Shown here piece after piece: positions 5,725 through 50,983 of a DNA stretch of 64,000 nucleotides. Within the stretch, counting starts at the first letter, position 1. Each line of letters opens with the position of its first letter. The notes under the pieces were generated by a model. The model was not told the origin of the DNA and searched no databases. It saw only the letters and a program-made list of their open reading frames with translations. Made by a program: the position numbers and the translations under genes. Location: positions 2,186,644-2,250,643 of the forward strand of contig CAXXLL010000003.1 of the NCBI GenBank assembly GCA_963662545.2. The letters run 5' to 3'. The stretch comes from Gammaproteobacteria bacterium (GTDB taxonomy: Bacteria; Pseudomonadota; Gammaproteobacteria; Ga0077536).

Positions 5725-7264
5725 AATGATTACCTCTCAGGCTATCGTAACGTTCGGTGTTGGCGATCGGCTCGTTACTGAGACTTAAAGACGGTGGCGG
5801 CTCGAGGGCCGCCGGAGGCGGCGTGTCCAGTAATCGCGACAGTCGGTTGAGAATGTGGGTCTTGGAGATCACGCCGCTGGCAATGGCCTCACAGACAGCC
5901 TGTTCCACGAGCTTCTCGTCGTGGTGCAGCACAAGCGCCAGGATGTCGGCCATCTCGCGATCACCACCGTCGCGTTGACGCAGGACAGACCGCAAGCGCT
6001 GGAAGCTCTTTGGTAGCTCGGCAAACGGTGCACCGTTCCGTAATGCACCGGGCTTTCTCTGCACCACGGCCAGGTAGTGGCGCCAGTCGTAGACGGTTGT
6101 GCCCTTGCTGTTGTGATCGCGATTAAACACCCGGACATGCTCGGCAATGACCCTAGCCTCAGCCACCAGCACGATGCGATCGGCATAGGCTCGCATGCTG
6201 ACGACGCGGTTGGCGAAGGCCGCCGGTACGCTGTAGCGGTTGCGTTCGAAGTGAATCAGGCAGGTTGGCGTAACGCGCTTGGTGAGCTCCACAAAGCCAT
6301 CGAAGGGCGGTGGCATCACCATCAGCGCAGCACGCTCATCGTCGAACACCTCGGCAACGGTGCGACCGTTCTGTTCCGGGTGCAAGACCTCGTGCCACAA
6401 CGACTGGCAGCGCTCTTCCAGCCAGTCGTTGAGCTTGGCGAGGCTCGCGAACGCCGGTGCGTCCTGCAGCATGCGATGCCGGGCATCGCGAACGGCCTTC
6501 TCCACCTGGCCTTTCTCCCAGCCGGCGGCGGGGTTACAGAACTCGGACTCAAACAGAAAATGGCTGACCATGGCGCGGAAACGGGCGTTGACCTTGCGGT
6601 GTTTACCGCGACCGACCTTGTCCACAGCGGTCTTCATATTGTCGTAGATGCCGCGCTCCGGAATGCCCTGCAACACACGGAAAGCATGATTGTGGGCGTC
6701 GAACAGCATCTCGTGCGTCTGGGTCAGGTAGGCGCGAAGAAAGAACGCTCGGCTGTGGCACAACTTGAAGTGCGCCATCTGCAGCTTGGTCTTCTTGCCG
6801 CCAATGCGAATCCAGTCTTCGCTCCAGTCGAACTGGAAAGCCTCTCCGGGTGCAAAGACGAGCGGCACAAAGGCACCTCGACTGGCGCGGCTCTCCCGTT
6901 CGCGCTCACGTTGTCGCCAGTCGCGGGCGAAGGCGGCGACCCGGTCGTAGGAACCATCAAAACCCAGCGCCACCAGGTCGCGATGTAACTGCTTTAAGTT
7001 ACGTCGTCGCTTCCTGTTGCGCTTGGCCTCGCGCTTCAGCCAACTCAGCAAGGTATCCACAAATGGATCGAGCTTGCTGATGCTCTTTCTGGCCGGGTAT
7101 GCAGGCGTTACCTCACCGTTGGCCAGGTACTTCTTTATCGTGTTCCGGGAAAGCCCGGTTCGTCTTGTAATCTCTCTTATCGGTAGCTTGTCACGTCCGT
7201 GCCAGCGCCGAATAACACTCAATAAATCCACGTCTATCACTCCTTCATAACTCCTGCAGTCCAA
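5714..7264 (-). CDS. istA: IS21 transposase IstA
   Basis: 516 aa with an N-terminal HTH ([19 protein letters not shown]) and a DDE core. It overlaps the istB start by 11 nt. Confidence 0.9.
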
Positions 7265-11700: not shown

Positions 11701-13215
11701 ATGGAAGGCGGGAGGATGTACACCGTGGACCTATATCTGCGCGTTCGGCTGGCCTGCCATGTTGATGGTCTGAGCCAGCGAGAGGCGGCAAGTCGGTTTG
11801 GCATTGCGCGCGAGACGGTGAGGAAGATGCTGCGGCATTCGGAACCGCCGGGATATCGGCGACGCCAGCCACCGAAACGCCCGAAACGGGCCCCCTTCAC
11901 GGATATCATCGACCGTATTCTGGAGGAGGACCGAACGGTTCACCGTAAGCAGCACCACACGGCGAAGCGTATATTCGAGCGCCTTCGCGACGAACATGGC
12001 TTCACGGGCAAAGAGACCATCGTGAAGGATTACGTTCGGGAACGGCGCCTTCGTCGGCGTGAGATGTTTGTGCCGTTGTCACATCCTCCGGGCCATGCTC
12101 AAGCGGACTTTGGCGAGGCGGATGCGATCATCGCCGGCGTCAAGTATCGGGCGCATTTTTTCGTCATGACACTTCCCCACAGCGATGCCTGCTTCGTTGC
12201 GGCCTACCCGTCAGCGACGACGGAGGCCTGGCTGGACGGGCACAACAGAACCTTCGCCTTCTTCGGCGGTGTTCCCCGATCGATTCTCTACGACAACGAC
12301 AAGTGCCTGGTGTCGCGCATCTTGCCGGATGGCACGCGACAACGAACGCGAGCGTTCAGCGGACTGCAGTCCCATTACCTCTTCGAGGACCGTTACGGCC
12401 GTCCCGGCAAGGGCAACGACAAAGGCAATGTTGAGGGGGTGGTTGGCTACGCCCGACGGAACTTCATGACGCCGCTTCCCCGGTTCGCGAGCTGGGACGC
12501 CTTCAACGCTTACCTGGAGGAACAATGCCGCAAACGGCAAGACGACGTCCTGCGCGGCCACCGCGAGAGCATCGGCGAACGGTTTGTGCGTGACCGCGAA
12601 GCGTTGAAGAGGCCACTGCCGGCACCGTTCGACGCGTGCGACAAGCAGGGCACGCGGGTCAACTCGCTGTCCCTGGTGCGCTACCGGACGAATGACTATT
12701 CCGTGCCCGTCGCCTACGGCCATCAGGAAGTCTGGATCCGTGGCTATGTCCACGAGGTGGTTATCGGTTGCGGCGCCGGGATCATTGCCCGACACCCCCG
12801 TTCCTACGACCGGGAAGATAGGGTCTTCGATCCGATCCACTACCTGCCTTTGCTGGAGCACAAGATCGGTGCCCTGGATCAGGCCGCGCCGCTAGCCGGA
12901 TGGGAACTGCCTGATGCCTTCCCAACCCTGCGCCGTCTCCTGGAGGCGCGCATGGGCAAGGCCGGCAAGCGGGAATACGTCCAGGTCCTTCGGCTTCTGG
13001 AGACCTTCGATCTCGAGGTGCTTCACGGCGCGGTGAAGGACGCCCTGCGCCTGGGCGCGATCGGCTACGACGCCGTCAAACACCTTGTGCTGTGCCGTAT
13101 CGAGCGACGCCCGCCCAAACTCGACCTGGATATCTATCCCTACCTGCCTCGGGCCAACGTGGCGACCACGGCCGCCGCCAGTTATATGAGCTTGTTGGGT
13201 GGAGGCGCGTCATGA
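11701..13215 (+). CDS. istA: IS21 transposase IstA
   Basis: 504 aa with HTH LSQREAASRFGIARETVRKML and a DDE core. The true start may be the Met at 11716. Confidence 0.9.
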   Translation: MEGGRMYTVDLYLRVRLACHVDGLSQREAASRFGIARETVRKMLRHSEPPGYRRRQPPKRPKRAPFTDIIDRILEEDRTVHRKQHHTAKRIFERLRDEHGFTGKETIVKDYVRERRLRRREMFVPLSHPPGHAQADFGEADAIIAGVKYRAHFFVMTLPHSDACFVAAYPSATTEAWLDGHNRTFAFFGGVPRSILYDNDKCLVSRILPDGTRQRTRAFSGLQSHYLFEDRYGRPGKGNDKGNVEGVVGYARRNFMTPLPRFASWDAFNAYLEEQCRKRQDDVLRGHRESIGERFVRDREALKRPLPAPFDACDKQGTRVNSLSLVRYRTNDYSVPVAYGHQEVWIRGYVHEVVIGCGAGIIARHPRSYDREDRVFDPIHYLPLLEHKIGALDQAAPLAGWELPDAFPTLRRLLEARMGKAGKREYVQVLRLLETFDLEVLHGAVKDALRLGAIGYDAVKHLVLCRIERRPPKLDLDIYPYLPRANVATTAAASYMSLLGGGAS

Positions 13216-15631: not shown

Positions 15632-16104
15632 TCCACTCGCTATGCACGACTGAATCTTACGAGTTTGGACGAAAGGCAAGATTTGCGAGTATAAGAAGAA
15701 CAAAGCGTGTTTTTGTCTGTTTATCGAGTATGCGAGTTTAAATCGGGTGGTAGATTGGTTCGCACTGACTGCGCTTGGGGGTCGTATAAGCGAAAGAAGG
15801 CGAGCAAGTCCTGTCTTTAATGAGTGGAAACGGTCCCCCCGCGTCGTCGAATTAGCCTTGAGACCCAGCGCGTCCGCGACCGTCGCTAGCGAGGCCTGGC
15901 ATCCATGTGTTGAGGGGATTTTGGGGCTCATTCGTTGAGCCCGGGGAGCATCAATTGCGGCGGCGCCCGGGCGGCATGTGCGTTGGCGCTTGGGGGGCTG
16001 GTGGTTTGACGATCGAGATGATCCAGGATGCGCTGGATGACGGTGGGGTCTTCGATGCAGGCGATGATCTTCACCGCACCGCCACACACCTCGCAGGTTT
16101 CATC

Positions 16105-16176
16105 GGGCACATCTCTGTGCCCGCCCGCTTCGCGGCAGTCTGCGCCTGTGCAAATCGGCTTTCCTGCCGATTTGTC
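16105..16176 (-). repeat. Stacked-hairpin micro-element, copy F
   Basis: The minus strand reads GAC aaatcggc-aggaaa-gccgattt GCA ... ccgc-gaa-gcgg ... gggcac-agagat-gtgccc. It lies inside the IS91 reading frame between HIDI and DETC. Confidence 0.7.
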
Positions 16177-16381
16177 AATGTCGATGTGGCCTACAGGGAT
16201 GTAGGTCAGGGGCGTGAGCAGGACGCGGAAGCTTTGAACACGCGTTTCAAGCGGCGTGCCCACGCCAAGGTCGCGCGCTGTTGGGTGGCTGTTTTATCGG
16301 TCTGCAGATCGGGTGATTTTCGACCACGCCGGGCGGGTGTGACGGTGGCGCGGTGGGCGCTGTTCGGAGCGAACATGCCGT

Positions 16382-16453
16382 GACAAATTTATCCGGAATA
16401 AATTTGGACGACCGAAGGTCGCCCGAAGGGTGAGGAACAGGGATGTTCCTCAT
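16382..16453 (+). repeat. Stacked-hairpin micro-element, copy A
   Basis: GAC aaatttat-ccgga-ataaattt GGA cgacc-gaa-ggtcg ccc-gaa-ggg tg gaggaac-agggat-gttcctc. It splits the IS91 frame between NLIRF and GMFAPNS. Confidence 0.75.
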
Positions 16454-16511
16454 CAAAGCGAATGAGATTGACGCGGGGTTTGGGAATGAGCGCTGCGAGA
16501 CGGGCGATGAA

Positions 16512-16585
16512 GTACTCCGGGCATCCTGCCCTGCGCCCTTCGGGCCAGCCTACGGCTGTTCAAAATCGCTCCCGGCGATTTTGTC
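16512..16585 (-). repeat. Stacked-hairpin micro-element, copy B
   Basis: The minus strand reads aaaatcgc-cggga-gcgatttt GAA cagcc-gta-ggctg gccc-gaa-gggc gggca-gga-tgccc. It is inserted between the IS91 codons for PLD and FIARL. Confidence 0.7.
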
Positions 16586-17178
16586 TAACGGCACGAAGAA
16601 CATATGCGTCGTGCCATCGCGGTAAGGGGTTTTGAGTTGGTACCGGACGAAGCCGTTTGCAGTCAGCGAGAGGCGTTGTTCAGAAATGGCGGGGCGGTGA
16701 TGTAACGGGCAAGGCGTTCGAGCTTTCTGCGCTTCTCCGGTTCGACGGCGACGCCGGCGTGCAGGGAGAAACCCGCGGCCTTGGCCAGGTGGTCGCTGGT
16801 GCGCGTGCTATCGTCGCGAGCCGGTAAGGTCTGCAGCGTGAAGGCTTTGTGACCCTCGCGGGGCCCGACAGCGATACGGATCATGCCCCGTTCCTGCAAA
16901 CGTCGGCACAATTCGTAGGGCTCTTGCCAGTTCTGATTTTGAATATGCGAGACGATCAAGGCGCCATCGAGCGCGACGGCGTTGGCGATTATTTCCCGGT
17001 GACCCAGGGTCCAGTTCAACGGCAAGGACTCGGTCGGGCCAAAGCGAGTATGAGCACCAAACATGCGATCGTACTTCTTGGCGAGTTTCTGTCGTCATCG
17101 TGACCGTGAACGGCGGGAATCTGTTCTATACTCGTTGCGTGTCGGGTTGATGTCTTTCGAGTACGCAGGAGGAAACGC

Positions 17179-26549: not shown

Positions 26550-27010
26550 GGTCGATTCCTCCTGCTTCAGCACCACTGATGCCGGAATAAACGCGTTTAA
26601 ATCATCCCAAGTATAAGGCGGATAACCGCCCTATTTCGAGCTTTCGGAGTTGACGCGTTTTGGTCGCGGGTCTGGATTTCGTGGTTTCGTGGCGGTCGTG
26701 GACGGGGTTGCGCGGGGCCGGTGTGTCGATGGCCTGGGTCAAGTGCGTCTAGCGGGGTGTGGTCACGAGCGGGCCCGTGACCGTCGCCGATGAGGGCTGT
26801 GATCTTGCTTGAGATCGGGGATGGCATCGAGCCTCAGTCGTTGAGGCCCGGCAGCGCTGCTTGTGGGGGTGCTCGGGCGGAAGGAATGCCGGACCACGTC
26901 GGCTGTGCAGCGCGCTGGTCAAGATGCTCGAGGATGCGTTGGATGACGGCGGGGTCTTCGATGCAGGCGATGATCTTAACGTTGCCGCCGCAGGCATCAC
27001 AGGTTTCATC

Positions 27011-27157
27011 GGGCACCTCCCTGTGCCCGCCCGCTTCGCGGCAATCTGCGACTGTGCACCAGTTTGCCGGGAGCAAACTGGAACAGCTTTAGCTGGCCTG
27101 CGCAGCAGGTAGGCTACATGGATGTAGCCTATAAATCGGTTTTCCTGCCGATTTGTC
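27011..27157 (-). repeat. Stacked-hairpin micro-element, copy F' (orthologous to 16105-16176) carrying a nested copy
   Basis: Same flanking hairpins as copy F (gggcac-ctccct-gtgccc ... aaatcgg-ttttcc-tgccgattt) but 75 bp longer. Confidence 0.7.
27059..27133 (+). repeat. Stacked-hairpin micro-element, nested copy N
   Basis: cagtttgc-cggga-gcaaactg GAA cagc-ttta-gctg cctgc-gca-gcagg taggctac-atggat-gtagccta. It is absent from the otherwise collinear site in remnant 1. Confidence 0.7.
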
Positions 27158-27415
27158 GATGTCGATGTGGCCTACAGGGATGTAGGTCGGGGGCGTGAGC
27201 AGGACGCGGGAGCTTTGAATACGTGCTTCAAGCGCCTGGCTTAAGGCTCGCCGCTCTTGCGCATCCCTGCGCCCGCGGCATTAGTGCATCCCTGCACGTC
27301 ATGGCGGCGCGGCACTGGCCAGGGGTTTTCTCGGTGTCGGGGCCGGGTGTTTTGCGGCCGCGGCGGGCGGGGGTGACCGCCGCGCGGTGTGGACTGTTCG
27401 GTGCGAACACGCCGT

Positions 27416-27488
27416 GACAAATTTATCCGGAATAAATTTGGACGACCGAAGGTCGCCCGAAGGGTGAGGAACAGGGATGTTCCTCATC
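27416..27488 (+). repeat. Stacked-hairpin micro-element, copy C (same site and sequence as copy A)
   Basis: Identical architecture and near-identical sequence to 16382-16453, at the same position in the IS91 frame. Confidence 0.75.
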
Positions 27489-27546
27489 AAAGCGGATGAG
27501 ATTGACACGGGGTTTGGGAATGAGTGCGGCGAGGAGGGCCATGACT

Positions 27547-27617
27547 AATCGGCAGGACTGCCGATTTGCACGACCGAAGGTCGCCCTGTCCGGGGTGGGG
27601 TACACGGACGTACCCCA
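27547..27617 (+). repeat. Stacked-hairpin micro-element, copy D
   Basis: aatcggca-ggac-tgccgatt TGCA cgacc-gaa-ggtcg ccc..ggg ggggtac-acggac-gtacccc. It is inserted after the PLDF codons of IS91, 3 nt from the site of copy B and in opposite orientation. Confidence 0.7.
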
Positions 27618-27925
27618 TGAAATCGAGCGGTTCGAAGAACACGTGGGTGGTGCCGTCCAGGTCAAGGGGTTTTGAGCGCGTATCGCACCAAGCCCTGTGA
27701 GATGAGTGACAGGCGCTGCTCGGAGAGCGCGGGTCGGGTGATGGTGCGGCATAGTCGTTCGAGTTTCTTTCGTTCCCAGGGCTCGGTGCCGACGCCGGCG
27801 GCTACAAATCCCCTGAATAGCTGTTCGCCGGCAAGCCGGCTCCTACGGTGCGATAGGCATGCAACTGCGGCACCGTAAGAGCCGGCTCGCCGGCGAACCA
27901 CGCCGCCTCAGCGCACCGCACCTAG

Positions 27926-29531
27926 CCTGCATATTGCATGAGTGAATAAATTTAGGCGGTTTTGTTGGCAAGTTGGCCGTTCAATCGATTGTCATCGGCG
28001 ATTGCAGGGGCTGGTCTACTCATGCCCGAGTGGCAAGGACGTTACCGCAGTAATTTTTGCTGAGAAGTCGTTTTTCAGGCAAAGGTATCCATGCGTGTTT
28101 TCAACACGCGAATGCTTTAATCGTTTCGGGTTTATCCGGGTGCGAGTCGATTCGCGGCCAGGAAGTAGAGTTCCTTGTAAGGACAACCGCTGGCCAAAAG
28201 GAAACGGATACGGCGCGTATTTTTCAGGATCACGGCACCGATCCTGAACAGCTTTAAACGGATGGTACCGACATAAGCGTTGGCCAGCTCGGTACCTTTC
28301 AATGCGATCCGCCGGATCGCCTCGATCAGGGTGTAGGCCAGCGAGGCGAGTAACAATCGGAACTGATTCGGCCACCAGTGTTGACAGGAGGTGCGATCGC
28401 CGAACATATCCAGTTGGTTTTCCTTGATGCGGTTTTCCATGTCACCGCGGGCACAGTAAAGCTTGTCGTACAGCTGCTTGGCATCGCCTTCAAGGTTGGT
28501 CACCACATAACGCGGATTGACACCGTGCTGCGAGTGCTCGATCTTGGCGATCACGCGACGCGCACCATCCCAGCTGCGGGCAGCGTATTGGAAATCGGTG
28601 AACCAGCGCACTTTATGTCCGGTGGCGGCAAAGCACGCCGCGGCCTCATCCTGCAAGGATGCCGTGAGCCGGTTCAAGCACTTATTCTTGGCCAGTCCGA
28701 TGATGTAGCCGACCTCGTGATGATCACACCAGCGCAGCATCTTCCAGCGGCAAAAGCCACCGTCACCGCGGAAGATGATCCGCACCTTTGGCCACACTTG
28801 CCGCAGTCTTTTGACCAACAACGACAAAATCGCCCAGCTGTGTTTGGCACCATCGATGTTGCTCGGACGAAGATAGCTCACCAGCAACTGATGACCGCAG
28901 AATACATACAGTGGCAGAAAACAGTAGTGCCGGTAATAGCCGTGAAAGAAGCGACCGTCCTGTTCACCGTGTACCGGGTCATCGGTCGCATCGAAGTCCA
29001 GTATCAACTTTTTCGGTGCACGCTTGAACGAGGCGATGAACTGATCGAGCAGCACTTCGTGCAACCGCCAGGCAGTCTCCCGATCAGCCCGGTTCTCAAA
29101 ACGGCATAAGGTCGATGCACTGGCCAACCATTGATCACGTTCCACTGCTGTCTGCAGTGCCACGTCTTGACGCAATCCGTCATGGTCGTTCAGGTCTTCA
29201 TAGCCCAGCGCAATCGCATACAGGCGTTGCCGAACCAGACCCGGCACATCATGATCGCAACTCGCCTGACGGCGGGGATCCGACAGCGCCCGCGCAATCG
29301 AATCACTCAAACCCGTTAACCGATCTGCCTGCCGCAATAGCAACACGCCACCATCGGAAGTGATGTCGCCACCGTCGAATCTGGCTTCGACAATGCGGCG
29401 ATTAACACGTGGAAATTCGAACGATCTCTGGTAACATTTCGTCACGGCGGTCCCTTCCTTTATTCGTTGTTAGCACTTTGAATTATATAGGAAACTACAG
29501 GACCGCCGTTTCTATTGGTGCAATTTGCAGG
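27926..29531 (-). mobile_element. IS1380-family insertion sequence
   Basis: Terminal IRs are CCTGCATATTGCA (27926) and the reverse complement of CCTGCAAATTGCA (ending 29531). CTAG lies on both flanks (4-bp duplication or part of the IR). It carries a single 437-aa transposase. Confidence 0.8.
28132..29445 (-). CDS. IS1380-family DDE transposase
   Basis: 437 aa. DITSDGGVLLLRQADR, LILDFDATDDPVHGEQ, FHGYYRHYCFLPLY and YCARGDMENRIKE are hallmark IS1380 motifs. Confidence 0.9.
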   Translation of the reverse strand: MTKCYQRSFEFPRVNRRIVEARFDGGDITSDGGVLLLRQADRLTGLSDSIARALSDPRRQASCDHDVPGLVRQRLYAIALGYEDLNDHDGLRQDVALQTAVERDQWLASASTLCRFENRADRETAWRLHEVLLDQFIASFKRAPKKLILDFDATDDPVHGEQDGRFFHGYYRHYCFLPLYVFCGHQLLVSYLRPSNIDGAKHSWAILSLLVKRLRQVWPKVRIIFRGDGGFCRWKMLRWCDHHEVGYIIGLAKNKCLNRLTASLQDEAAACFAATGHKVRWFTDFQYAARSWDGARRVIAKIEHSQHGVNPRYVVTNLEGDAKQLYDKLYCARGDMENRIKENQLDMFGDRTSCQHWWPNQFRLLLASLAYTLIEAIRRIALKGTELANAYVGTIRLKLFRIGAVILKNTRRIRFLLASGCPYKELYFLAANRLAPG

Positions 29532-29855
29532 CTAGCCGGAGGGGAACTGCCTGATGCCTTCCCAACCCTGCGCCGGCTCCTGGAGGCGCGCATGGGCAAG
29601 GCCGGCAAGCGGGAATACGTCCAGGTCCTTCGGCTTCTGGAGACCTTCGATCGCGAGGTGCTTCACGGCGCGGTGAAGGACGCCCTGCGTCTGGGCGCGA
29701 TCGGCTACGACGCCGTCAAACACCTTGTGCTGTGCCGTATCGAGCGACGCCCGCCCAAACTCGACCTGGATATCTATCCCTACCTGCCTCGGGCCAACGT
29801 GGCGACCACGGCCGCCGCCAGTTATATGAGCTTGTTGGGTGGAGGCGCGTCATGA
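29532..29855 (+). pseudogene. istA: istA 3' fragment
   Basis: Encodes only the last about 107 residues (ELPDAFPTLRRLLEARMGKAGKREY...). Confidence 0.85.
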
Positions 29856-50732: not shown

Positions 50733-50825
50733 GACGCCTCATCAAGTGCGCTGTCCCGCAATAAAACTTCATAATTCGCTGGTCCTCGCACCGCGCTGCG
50801 GCGTTACTCGTCGTTGCCGTATTGC

Positions 50826-50896
50826 GGATGCCGTCCATGGCATCCACCCTTCGGGCCCGCCTTCGGCGGTCCAAATACGTTCCCGACGAATTTGTC
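50826..50896 (-). repeat. Stacked-hairpin micro-element, copy E, in the sucB-lpdA spacer
   Basis: The minus strand reads GAC aaattcgt-cggga-acgtattt GGA ccgcc-gaa-ggcgg gccc-gaa-gggt ggatgcc-atggac-ggcatcc. Confidence 0.75.
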
Positions 50897-50983
50897 CCGA
50901 TACGACGCCTCCTCGCGCCTTGCATCGCGGCACGAGTCCTGCGCGACTTATCGAAGTTTATTACGGGACAGCACACTAGGATC

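Follow-up and report, generated by a model that had tools for sequence, protein, structure and literature searches.

This study describes a family of short repeats in a 64,000-nt stretch of genomic DNA (positions 2,186,644 to 2,250,643 of contig CAXXLL010000003.1, forward strand; the whole stretch is called the window hereafter) from an uncultured gammaproteobacterium of the GTDB lineage Ga0077536. The repeats are best read as copies of a small non-autonomous mobile DNA element. More fully, and with a probability that I put at roughly 0.55, this is a structure-defined element of ~73 nt that is widespread in Gammaproteobacteria and constitutes the free-standing form of the core of the tRNA-linked repeats (TLRs) and RrB small RNA of E. 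coli. Covariation of its stems around fixed loops shows that selection acts on a single strand that folds, and its insertions were exact, with neither terminal inverted repeats nor target duplication.

Structure and distribution of the repeats

The window held eight full copies of 71–76 nt, one of them nested within another. Copy boundaries were set by the resumption of reading frames across the repeats and by comparing two paralogous host segments. All copies listed in a preliminary description, made from the sequence alone, turned out to be real; their boundaries were refined, and the two entries given there as 27011-27157 and 27059-27133 represent a nested pair (c4a and c4b, see below). The four-hairpin architecture was also as described. 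Hairpin 1 (9–10 bp) has a GGA-containing loop, hairpin 2 (5 bp) ends in a GNA triloop, hairpin 3 reads CCC-GNA-GGG, and hairpin 4 (5–8 bp) bears an ANGGAY loop, mostly in the form C-ANGGAY-G. The loops of hairpins 2 and 3 were almost always G-N-A closed by C-G, and ~90% of copies had GGA in the loops of hairpins 1 and 4. Hairpins 1 and 4 are situated 1–3 nt from the element ends, which read ACAAAT... and ...GTA, ATG or ATC and are not inverted repeats.

Among the seven distinct window copies, both sides had changed in 17 of 24 base pairs, and 90.9% of cells were paired, compared with 73% after shuffling and 28–45% with slid 3' partners; none of 500 shuffles reached the observed values. The covariation with fixed loops claimed in the preliminary description was thus borne out. 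In 114 distinct copies from other genomes, double changes were found in 23 of 24 pairs, with 91.7% of cells paired versus 69%, although this alignment leans towards structure because it was fitted to the model. The further claim that structure and not sequence is conserved stood for comparisons between subfamilies only: within subfamilies the sequence itself is kept too, and c3 and its counterpart from a different organism (L024) differ at only a few positions. The covariation between subfamilies reflects selection on source copies and not at each locus. The stretch from hairpin 1 to hairpin 2 has a conserved G[A/G/C]AC that recalls the IS801-type tetranucleotide; this may be a coincidence, since its G pairs with C2 of hairpin 1.

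Two covariance models were built, R1 from the window copies only and R2 from 116 copies in other genomes only. A pattern scan of species-representative genomes gave at least 118 stretches, and all counts for the 118 loci refer to the matches listed. Covariance searches of these loci yielded 116 and then 58 full or partial copies, at least 174 in total from roughly 100 species, nearly all of them gammaproteobacterial, so that the family extends beyond the window, as the preliminary description implied. R2 recovered every window copy with 44–87 bits and nothing else convincing in the window. These copies had never been used to build R2, and their E-values of 1e-14 to 1e-20 exclude chance.

About 100 of the 118 listed records were labelled Gammaproteobacteria, and the hosts included Cellvibrionaceae, Alteromonadales, Xanthomonadales, Chromatiales, Methylococcales, Thiotrichales, Halomonas, Shewanella, Vibrio, Erwinia, Enterobacter, and Pseudomonas. 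Nine listed loci (L005, L011, L042, L077, L080, L093, L095, L104, and L119) had labels from outside this class, namely Polaribacter, Desulfosoma, Anaerolineales, Halobacteria archaeon, Bacteriovoracaceae, Desulfobulbus, Rhodoferax, and Acidobacteria, while their copies were typical. Nearly all nine are metagenome bins, and mis-binned gammaproteobacterial contigs are therefore the likely explanation, with transfer as the alternative. A search of plasmids gave only seven partial matches, in enterobacterial records. No Rfam family or ribozyme was found in the window at gathering score or at a relaxed threshold; no Rfam family covers the window copies, and the repeats are in no RNA or repeat library.

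Insertion sites and tRNA-linked relatives

Seven of the eight window copies lie inside two pseudogenes of IS91-family transposases, which are HUH enzymes of the Y2 type. Pseudogene A (15935-17064, minus strand) is a frameshifted C-terminal part that hosts c1, c2, c3, and a 47-nt extra insert, and pseudogene B (26750-27752, minus strand) hosts c4a, c4b, c5, and c6. The two are paralogs with 72–93% identity in blocks, and after removing the repeats from A in silico, its protein matched positions 92-178 of the Pfam profile Y2_Tnp (E 9e-21). Copy c1 (16101-16175, minus strand, 75 nt, R2 63 bits) sits at ATTG|AAAC within the codons for I-D-I-E-T-C, and the IS91 reading frame runs on across the site once the copy is taken out. 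Copy c2 (16383-16454, plus strand, 72 nt, 81 bits) separates the F codon from the HG codons at CGTG|AAAG and is antisense to the IS91 frame, and c3 (16514-16584, minus strand, 71 nt, 87 bits) lies at TTAG|ACTT after the codons for P-L-D. In pseudogene B, c4a (27007-27156, minus strand) is the ortholog of c1 and gave partial model matches; it is split by c4b (27058-27132, plus strand, 75 nt, 63 bits), which is nested in its hairpin 1 at GTGC|AAAT. Copy c5 (27417-27488, plus strand) is identical to c2 and was inherited with the duplicated IS91 fragment, while c6 (27544-27619, plus strand, 76 nt, 64 bits) interrupts the L-D-F-M codons at CATG|AAAT; the IS91 gene of another organism (L052) holds a copy at this same site. 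The remaining copy, c7 (50824-50895, minus strand, 72 nt, 80 bits), occupies the sucB-lpdA spacer antisense to the operon and was found in all assemblies of the species.

Evidence for mobility came from several loci. The site of c4b in paralog B is empty in paralog A, where c1 is uninterrupted, and the junction GTGC|...|AAAT is exact and lacks a duplication. The sites of c3 and c6 are 4 nt apart in the two paralogs, with opposite orientations. A tRNA-Lys array of Aliiglaciecola (L102) consists of two intact genes and a third full-length copy that carries a 73-nt element in its T-loop, inserted with a 1-nt junction ambiguity and no duplication. This third copy, a pseudogene, also has a 12-nt insertion in its D-loop (CTCGTCCGAAGG; L102:7280-7291, minus strand), and this contains a C-GAA-G mini-hairpin like element hairpins 2 and 3. 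Nine head-to-tail abutting pairs were present among the listed copies, which is the arrangement expected if the left junction G|ACAAAT itself serves as a target. The element was further found in domain I of group II introns, in the sense direction at ACAG|AATCGC. Such introns are multi-copy (Rfam group-II-D1D4-3 matches at L037:5540-5778 and 6828-7066, and at L045:5602-5688), and several element-bearing copies per genome suggest that the ribozyme tolerates a 73-nt insertion.

In a logo of the flanks of 100 copies, position -1 was G in 71% and position +1 was A in 79%, and a slight preference for A/T-C-C came next. The site that the element prefers is G|A(A)TC, in its clearest form the tRNA T-loop GGTTCG|AATCC. 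The reconstructed empty sites were not intact tRNAs except by coincidence. Neither the IS91 pseudogene hosts, nor the precise insertion without duplication, nor the T-loop-like target had featured in the preliminary description.

TLRs of E. coli were reportedly described by Egan and Landy in 1978 and by Rudd in 1999. I found that R1 matched the spacer between the rrnB terminators T1 and T2 of E. coli, located between the 5S gene and murB, over the full length of the model (67.3 bits, E 1.8e-16); the 93-nt spacer sequence matched 3973 E. coli records, 3081 of them exactly. This spacer is the rrB TLR and has been characterised as the RrB small RNA, which is transcribed and processed and binds Hfq and CsrA in vitro, the binding of CsrA depending on GGA motifs (PMC8144298). 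The repeats rrA, rrB, and rrF correspond to the small RNAs RrA, RrB, and RrF, and the TLR layout comprises a repeat behind a tRNA gene followed by a copy of the tRNA 3' end (PMC8144298). Going by the model match, the family shares its four-hairpin core with the E. coli TLR/RrB; a described relative exists, contrary to the earlier statement that the repeats could not be placed in a described family. The TLR of tyrT is more remote (12 bits against R1, with hairpins 2 and 3 in common, as well as a 3' end that reads GAGTA), and the corresponding Rfam family, RF00391 (RtT RNA of the tyrT operon), is a distant relative of the element. RF00391 scored rrB at 21 bits, under its gathering score of 45, and gave no match in the window at gathering score nor, over 16000-16700, at E-values up to 10.

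In many relatives from other genomes, ...GGTTCG stands to the left of the element and AATCC... to its right, each being one half of a tRNA T-loop. They follow an intact tRNA gene of the same orientation at a distance of 57–93 nt downstream, and the next 15–19 nt copy the 3' end of that tRNA, an arrangement that is also that of the E. coli TLRs; rrB likewise carries a copy of the 3' end of its upstream RNA gene. Altogether, 34 of the 174 listed copies were just downstream of a co-oriented tRNA, whereas only one was near a tRNA on the opposite strand; in 17 of these 34, the right flank was identical to the 3' end of that tRNA at 15 or more of 18 positions. At the L102 locus, the tRNA 3' end and 73 nt of trailer are duplicated on either side of a 14-nt linker plus the element. 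This layout fits either the decay of a tandem gene copy that had been hit or a capture by missed termination.

Surroundings of the window copies

In-frame tolerated insertions, comparable to the Rickettsia palindromic elements, were ruled out, as the copies are 71–76 nt long, stop codons are present, and the frames shift. Adjoining c1 is a 47-nt extra insert in the IS91 frame (16186-16232, plus strand), with a counterpart next to c4a at 27167-27213. It contains two GGA-bearing hairpins, the hairpin-4-like CCTAC-AGGGAT-GTAGG and GCG-TGAGCAGGA-CGC, and a partial model match of 21–24 bits covers 16150-16210. This insert may be a truncated copy, a related element, or a second and smaller type of element.

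The sucB-lpdA spacer around c7 (50745-50977) forms a 233-bp imperfect palindrome whose 35-nt arms are 80% complementary and which has c7 at its centre; it may represent a further small element or else a hairpin with a regulatory role. In one assembly of the same species, a 65-bp insertion (TAGAGGCTTGGGCCGTGACAGC...CCACGTAC; L002:11243-11307, corresponding to about position 50850 of the window) sits exactly in the GAA loop of c7 hairpin 3. Neither the window nor two other assemblies have it at this place, and no further copy of it was found in the window. This insertion is unrelated to the element and was the sole strain difference seen.

Neither ARAGORN nor Rfam found a tRNA or rRNA gene in the window, and ARAGORN found no tmRNA gene. 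Two 99%-identical copies of another insertion sequence are present at 12891-13190 and 29531-29830, neither of which contains the element. They carry a gene with rve and Mu-transposase C-terminal domains and an overlapping open reading frame (ORF), and in related assemblies an IstB-like gene adjoins the transposase of this type. Given its near-identical copies, this insertion sequence looks recently active, in contrast to the old, element-riddled IS91 remnants. Further direct repeat pairs at 60801-60894/63907-64000 (91%) and 2-301/1584-1883 (83%) are unrelated to the element.

Proposed mechanism, alternative explanations and known systems

The element inserts between G and A and takes as targets the tRNA T-loop, IS91 genes, group II introns, its own copies, and its own left junction. 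In the proposed mechanism, the ACAAAT strand would fold as single-stranded DNA, and the GGA loops of hairpins 1 and 4 could seat a dimeric protein. A transposase of the HUH type acting in trans would then cut and rejoin the element, the first candidate being an IS91-family Y2 enzyme and the second an IS200/IS605-like Y1 enzyme. TLRs would, according to this scheme, be decayed copies of tRNA or 5S genes that the element had hit.

Several features favour the top strand as the one that folds, and as DNA. Stem mismatches were G-T rather than A-C at a ratio of 66:29, and when the folding of both strands was compared in 146 copies, the ACAAAT strand had the higher stability in 130 under DNA parameters and in 93 under RNA parameters. 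C(GNA)G triloops also form exceptionally stable DNA mini-hairpins, as known from work on d(GCGAAGC). The ACAAAT strand thus probably folds, as single-stranded DNA. Relative to the transcription of their hosts, copies point either way, so an RNA role is not needed for insertion or persistence. Sense-transcribed copies behind tRNA and 5S genes are another matter: the loop of hairpin 4 with its closing pair reads CANGGAYG and fits the CsrA consensus, and by analogy with RrB the GGA loops of such copies would be CsrA sites.

An HUH enzyme was inferred from the missing inverted repeats and duplications, the hairpins, and the association with IS91. For the latter, 2843 ORFs from the 118 listed loci were clustered, and the IS91-family transposase was the most recurrent protein family near copies (9 of 118 loci), with no other recurrent mobile-element protein among these ORFs. 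Wherever the position could be read from translated ORFs, the element lay inside the transposase gene, in either orientation and at a wide variety of sites. Elements of the IS91 family have neither inverted repeats nor target duplications, move by way of single-stranded circles, and can pick up DNA from upstream if they miss termination (PMC5714925, PMC3189936). These properties fit those of the element itself and offer a possible route to tRNA-linked modules.

A number of observations weigh against this reading. The link to IS91 is circumstantial: insertion into IS91 genes in both orientations misfits a single single-stranded intermediate as the target, and none of the IS91 copies examined had a match to the element ends at its own ends; the homology between paralogs A and B stops shortly after the stop codon, and nothing element-like was found there. 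No mobilising gene was identified. Permutation tests for guide-type target recognition were negative, in that the flanks of a copy matched its own ends no better than the ends of other copies (p = 0.41 and 0.17), and the target is weakly defined outside T-loop-like sites. The IS91-borne copies were present in every sampled assembly of the species, without presence/absence polymorphism, which gives no sign of recent activity in this species. The reading accounts only in part for the full TLR architecture, in which the upstream gene is intact while its 3' end and trailer are duplicated. On the opposite strand, the GNA triloops read C(UNCG)G, which is a stable RNA tetraloop and would allow for folding as RNA.

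A more specific version of the mechanism is possible, if rather doubtful. Here, the element would be a transposable CsrA-binding module that homes to the tRNA T-loop and the 5S 3' region and is moved by a rolling-circle transposase of the IS91 type while folded as single-stranded DNA; the TLRs would arise from terminations missed at pseudo-ends that resemble the T-loop, or from decay of the gene copies hit. This version would account for a feature of E. coli operons unexplained since 1978, and a mobile element would moreover seed sites for a post-transcriptional regulator downstream of the genes with the highest transcription. The repeats might instead be folded single-stranded recombination sites, akin to integron attC or CTX-phage attP, that a tyrosine recombinase exchanges at short G|AATC-like cores, with tRNA-linked modules as small 'cassettes' integrated at the T-loop. 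Structure is indeed more conserved than sequence, the junctions on both sides are similar (G|A(C)AAATC), module arrays that each end with 18–19 nt of tRNA 3' end resemble repeated integrations, and a crossover in the T-loop is typical of some tRNA-targeting integrases. I consider this unlikely, as neither the R''/L''...L'/R' organisation nor RYYYAAC/GTTRRRY boxes are present, no recombinase gene recurs near the listed copies, and tyrosine recombinases normally need an identical core longer than the G|A that was mostly seen.

Two explanations centred on RNA fare worse. That the repeats are non-mobile functional RNA modules, held at each locus by selection for CsrA titration or for RNA processing or stability, would agree with a transcribed and processed RrB that binds CsrA and Hfq (PMC8144298), with two GGA loops per unit in ~90% and the CsrA consensus CANGGAYG in hairpin 4, and with an orientation that is always sense behind tRNA genes. 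It is nevertheless quite improbable: seven of the eight window copies are inside defunct transposase genes, pointing either way, c7 runs antisense to its operon, insertion is shown by nesting and tandem arrays as well as by filled and empty paralogs, and the covariation between subfamilies is that of source copies. Spread via RNA, by joining of the transcript to tRNA, 5S, or group II intron RNA, reverse transcription, and fixation by recombination, would account for the sense orientation in these targets and for multi-copy element-bearing introns (two in L037, three in one metagenome-assembled genome). Antisense insertions in IS91 genes and the suc operon, duplicated flanks that reach past mature RNA ends, and the lack of matches to ribozyme families make it less credible still. 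Least of all would I expect an unusual family of repetitive extragenic palindromic (REP) sequences or bacterial interspersed mosaic elements (BIMEs) served by a RAYT (Y1) transposase elsewhere in the genome. The units are short, abundant, and rich in hairpins, and RAYT genes are typically single-copy and could sit outside the window, but there are four different hairpins in fixed order and direction instead of one alternating palindrome, and no conserved GTAG-type 5' tetranucleotide. The preliminary description was right to call the repeats unlike REP elements. A single-sequence phmmer search with E. coli RayT found no homolog in the window or in the 778 kb around the 174 listed copies; the best E-value was 0.31, in keeping with the earlier statement that the window has no RAYT gene.

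If the mobile-element reading is true, a sequence in most E. coli genomes is the fossil of a mobile element that can be recognised across Gammaproteobacteria. The rrnB T1-T2 terminator spacer is also present in very many cloning vectors. The reading would further provide an origin for TLRs, and would add a transposable unit of very small size that is defined by its structure and has the tRNA T-loop as its defined target. In assemblies, IS91 and tRNA genes are disrupted by such copies, and the models R1 and R2 could be used for annotation. In the literature searched, I found no description of mobility for TLRs or the rrnB spacer, and no paper on the sequence motif of the element or on a link between CsrA and MITEs (miniature inverted-repeat transposable elements); the mobility and breadth of the family appear to be undescribed there.

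Compared with known systems, the element is not a classical MITE, which has terminal inverted repeats and a target duplication, since its ends are no inverted repeats and its junctions are precise to within 1 nt. It also differs from REP/BIME units with RAYT, which consist of a single imperfect palindrome of 20–40 nt with a 5' tetranucleotide, and from integron attC, which forms one long imperfect hairpin with boxes: the element has four separate hairpins, and no such boxes were seen in the alignments. With CsrA-sequestering RNAs of the CsrB/RsmZ type it shares GGA in hairpin loops, and tandem arrays would carry many sites; unlike these RNAs, its copies have no promoter or terminator of their own and are dispersed in both orientations, also within pseudogenes. 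TLRs have the same core (the R1 match to rrB), yet they are described as fixed repeats or small RNAs in tRNA or rRNA operons, just downstream of an RNA gene and with an 18–19 bp copy of its 3' end. Window copies are scattered in both orientations, away from such genes, and their right flanks are IS91 coding sequence or spacer.

Palindrome-associated elements derived from IS200/IS605, like REP/RAYT, are short and non-coding, conserve hairpins over sequence, and cause no target duplication, and the IS200/IS605 pattern of subterminal hairpins at both ends without inverted repeats or duplication is also that of the element. It appears to depart from them in that its left flank conserves only the G at -1 and no specific 4–5 nt target, with four hairpins in fixed order, no sign of guide pairing, and no Y1 transposase found nearby. 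Relative to IS91, IS801, ISCR, and their miniature one-ended derivatives, the element appears to share no sequence with the ends of the IS91 copies found here, although the true ends of those relatives are undefined. Its target appears to be G|A(A)TC rather than GAAC or CAAG abutting the right end (its own flanks are G|A, sometimes CTTG| or GTTCG|), and what associates it with these elements is that copies have inserted into the transposase gene, not that they flank it. What the element has in common with this group is the absence of inverted repeats and target duplication, hairpins near the ends, and the expectation of single-stranded intermediates.

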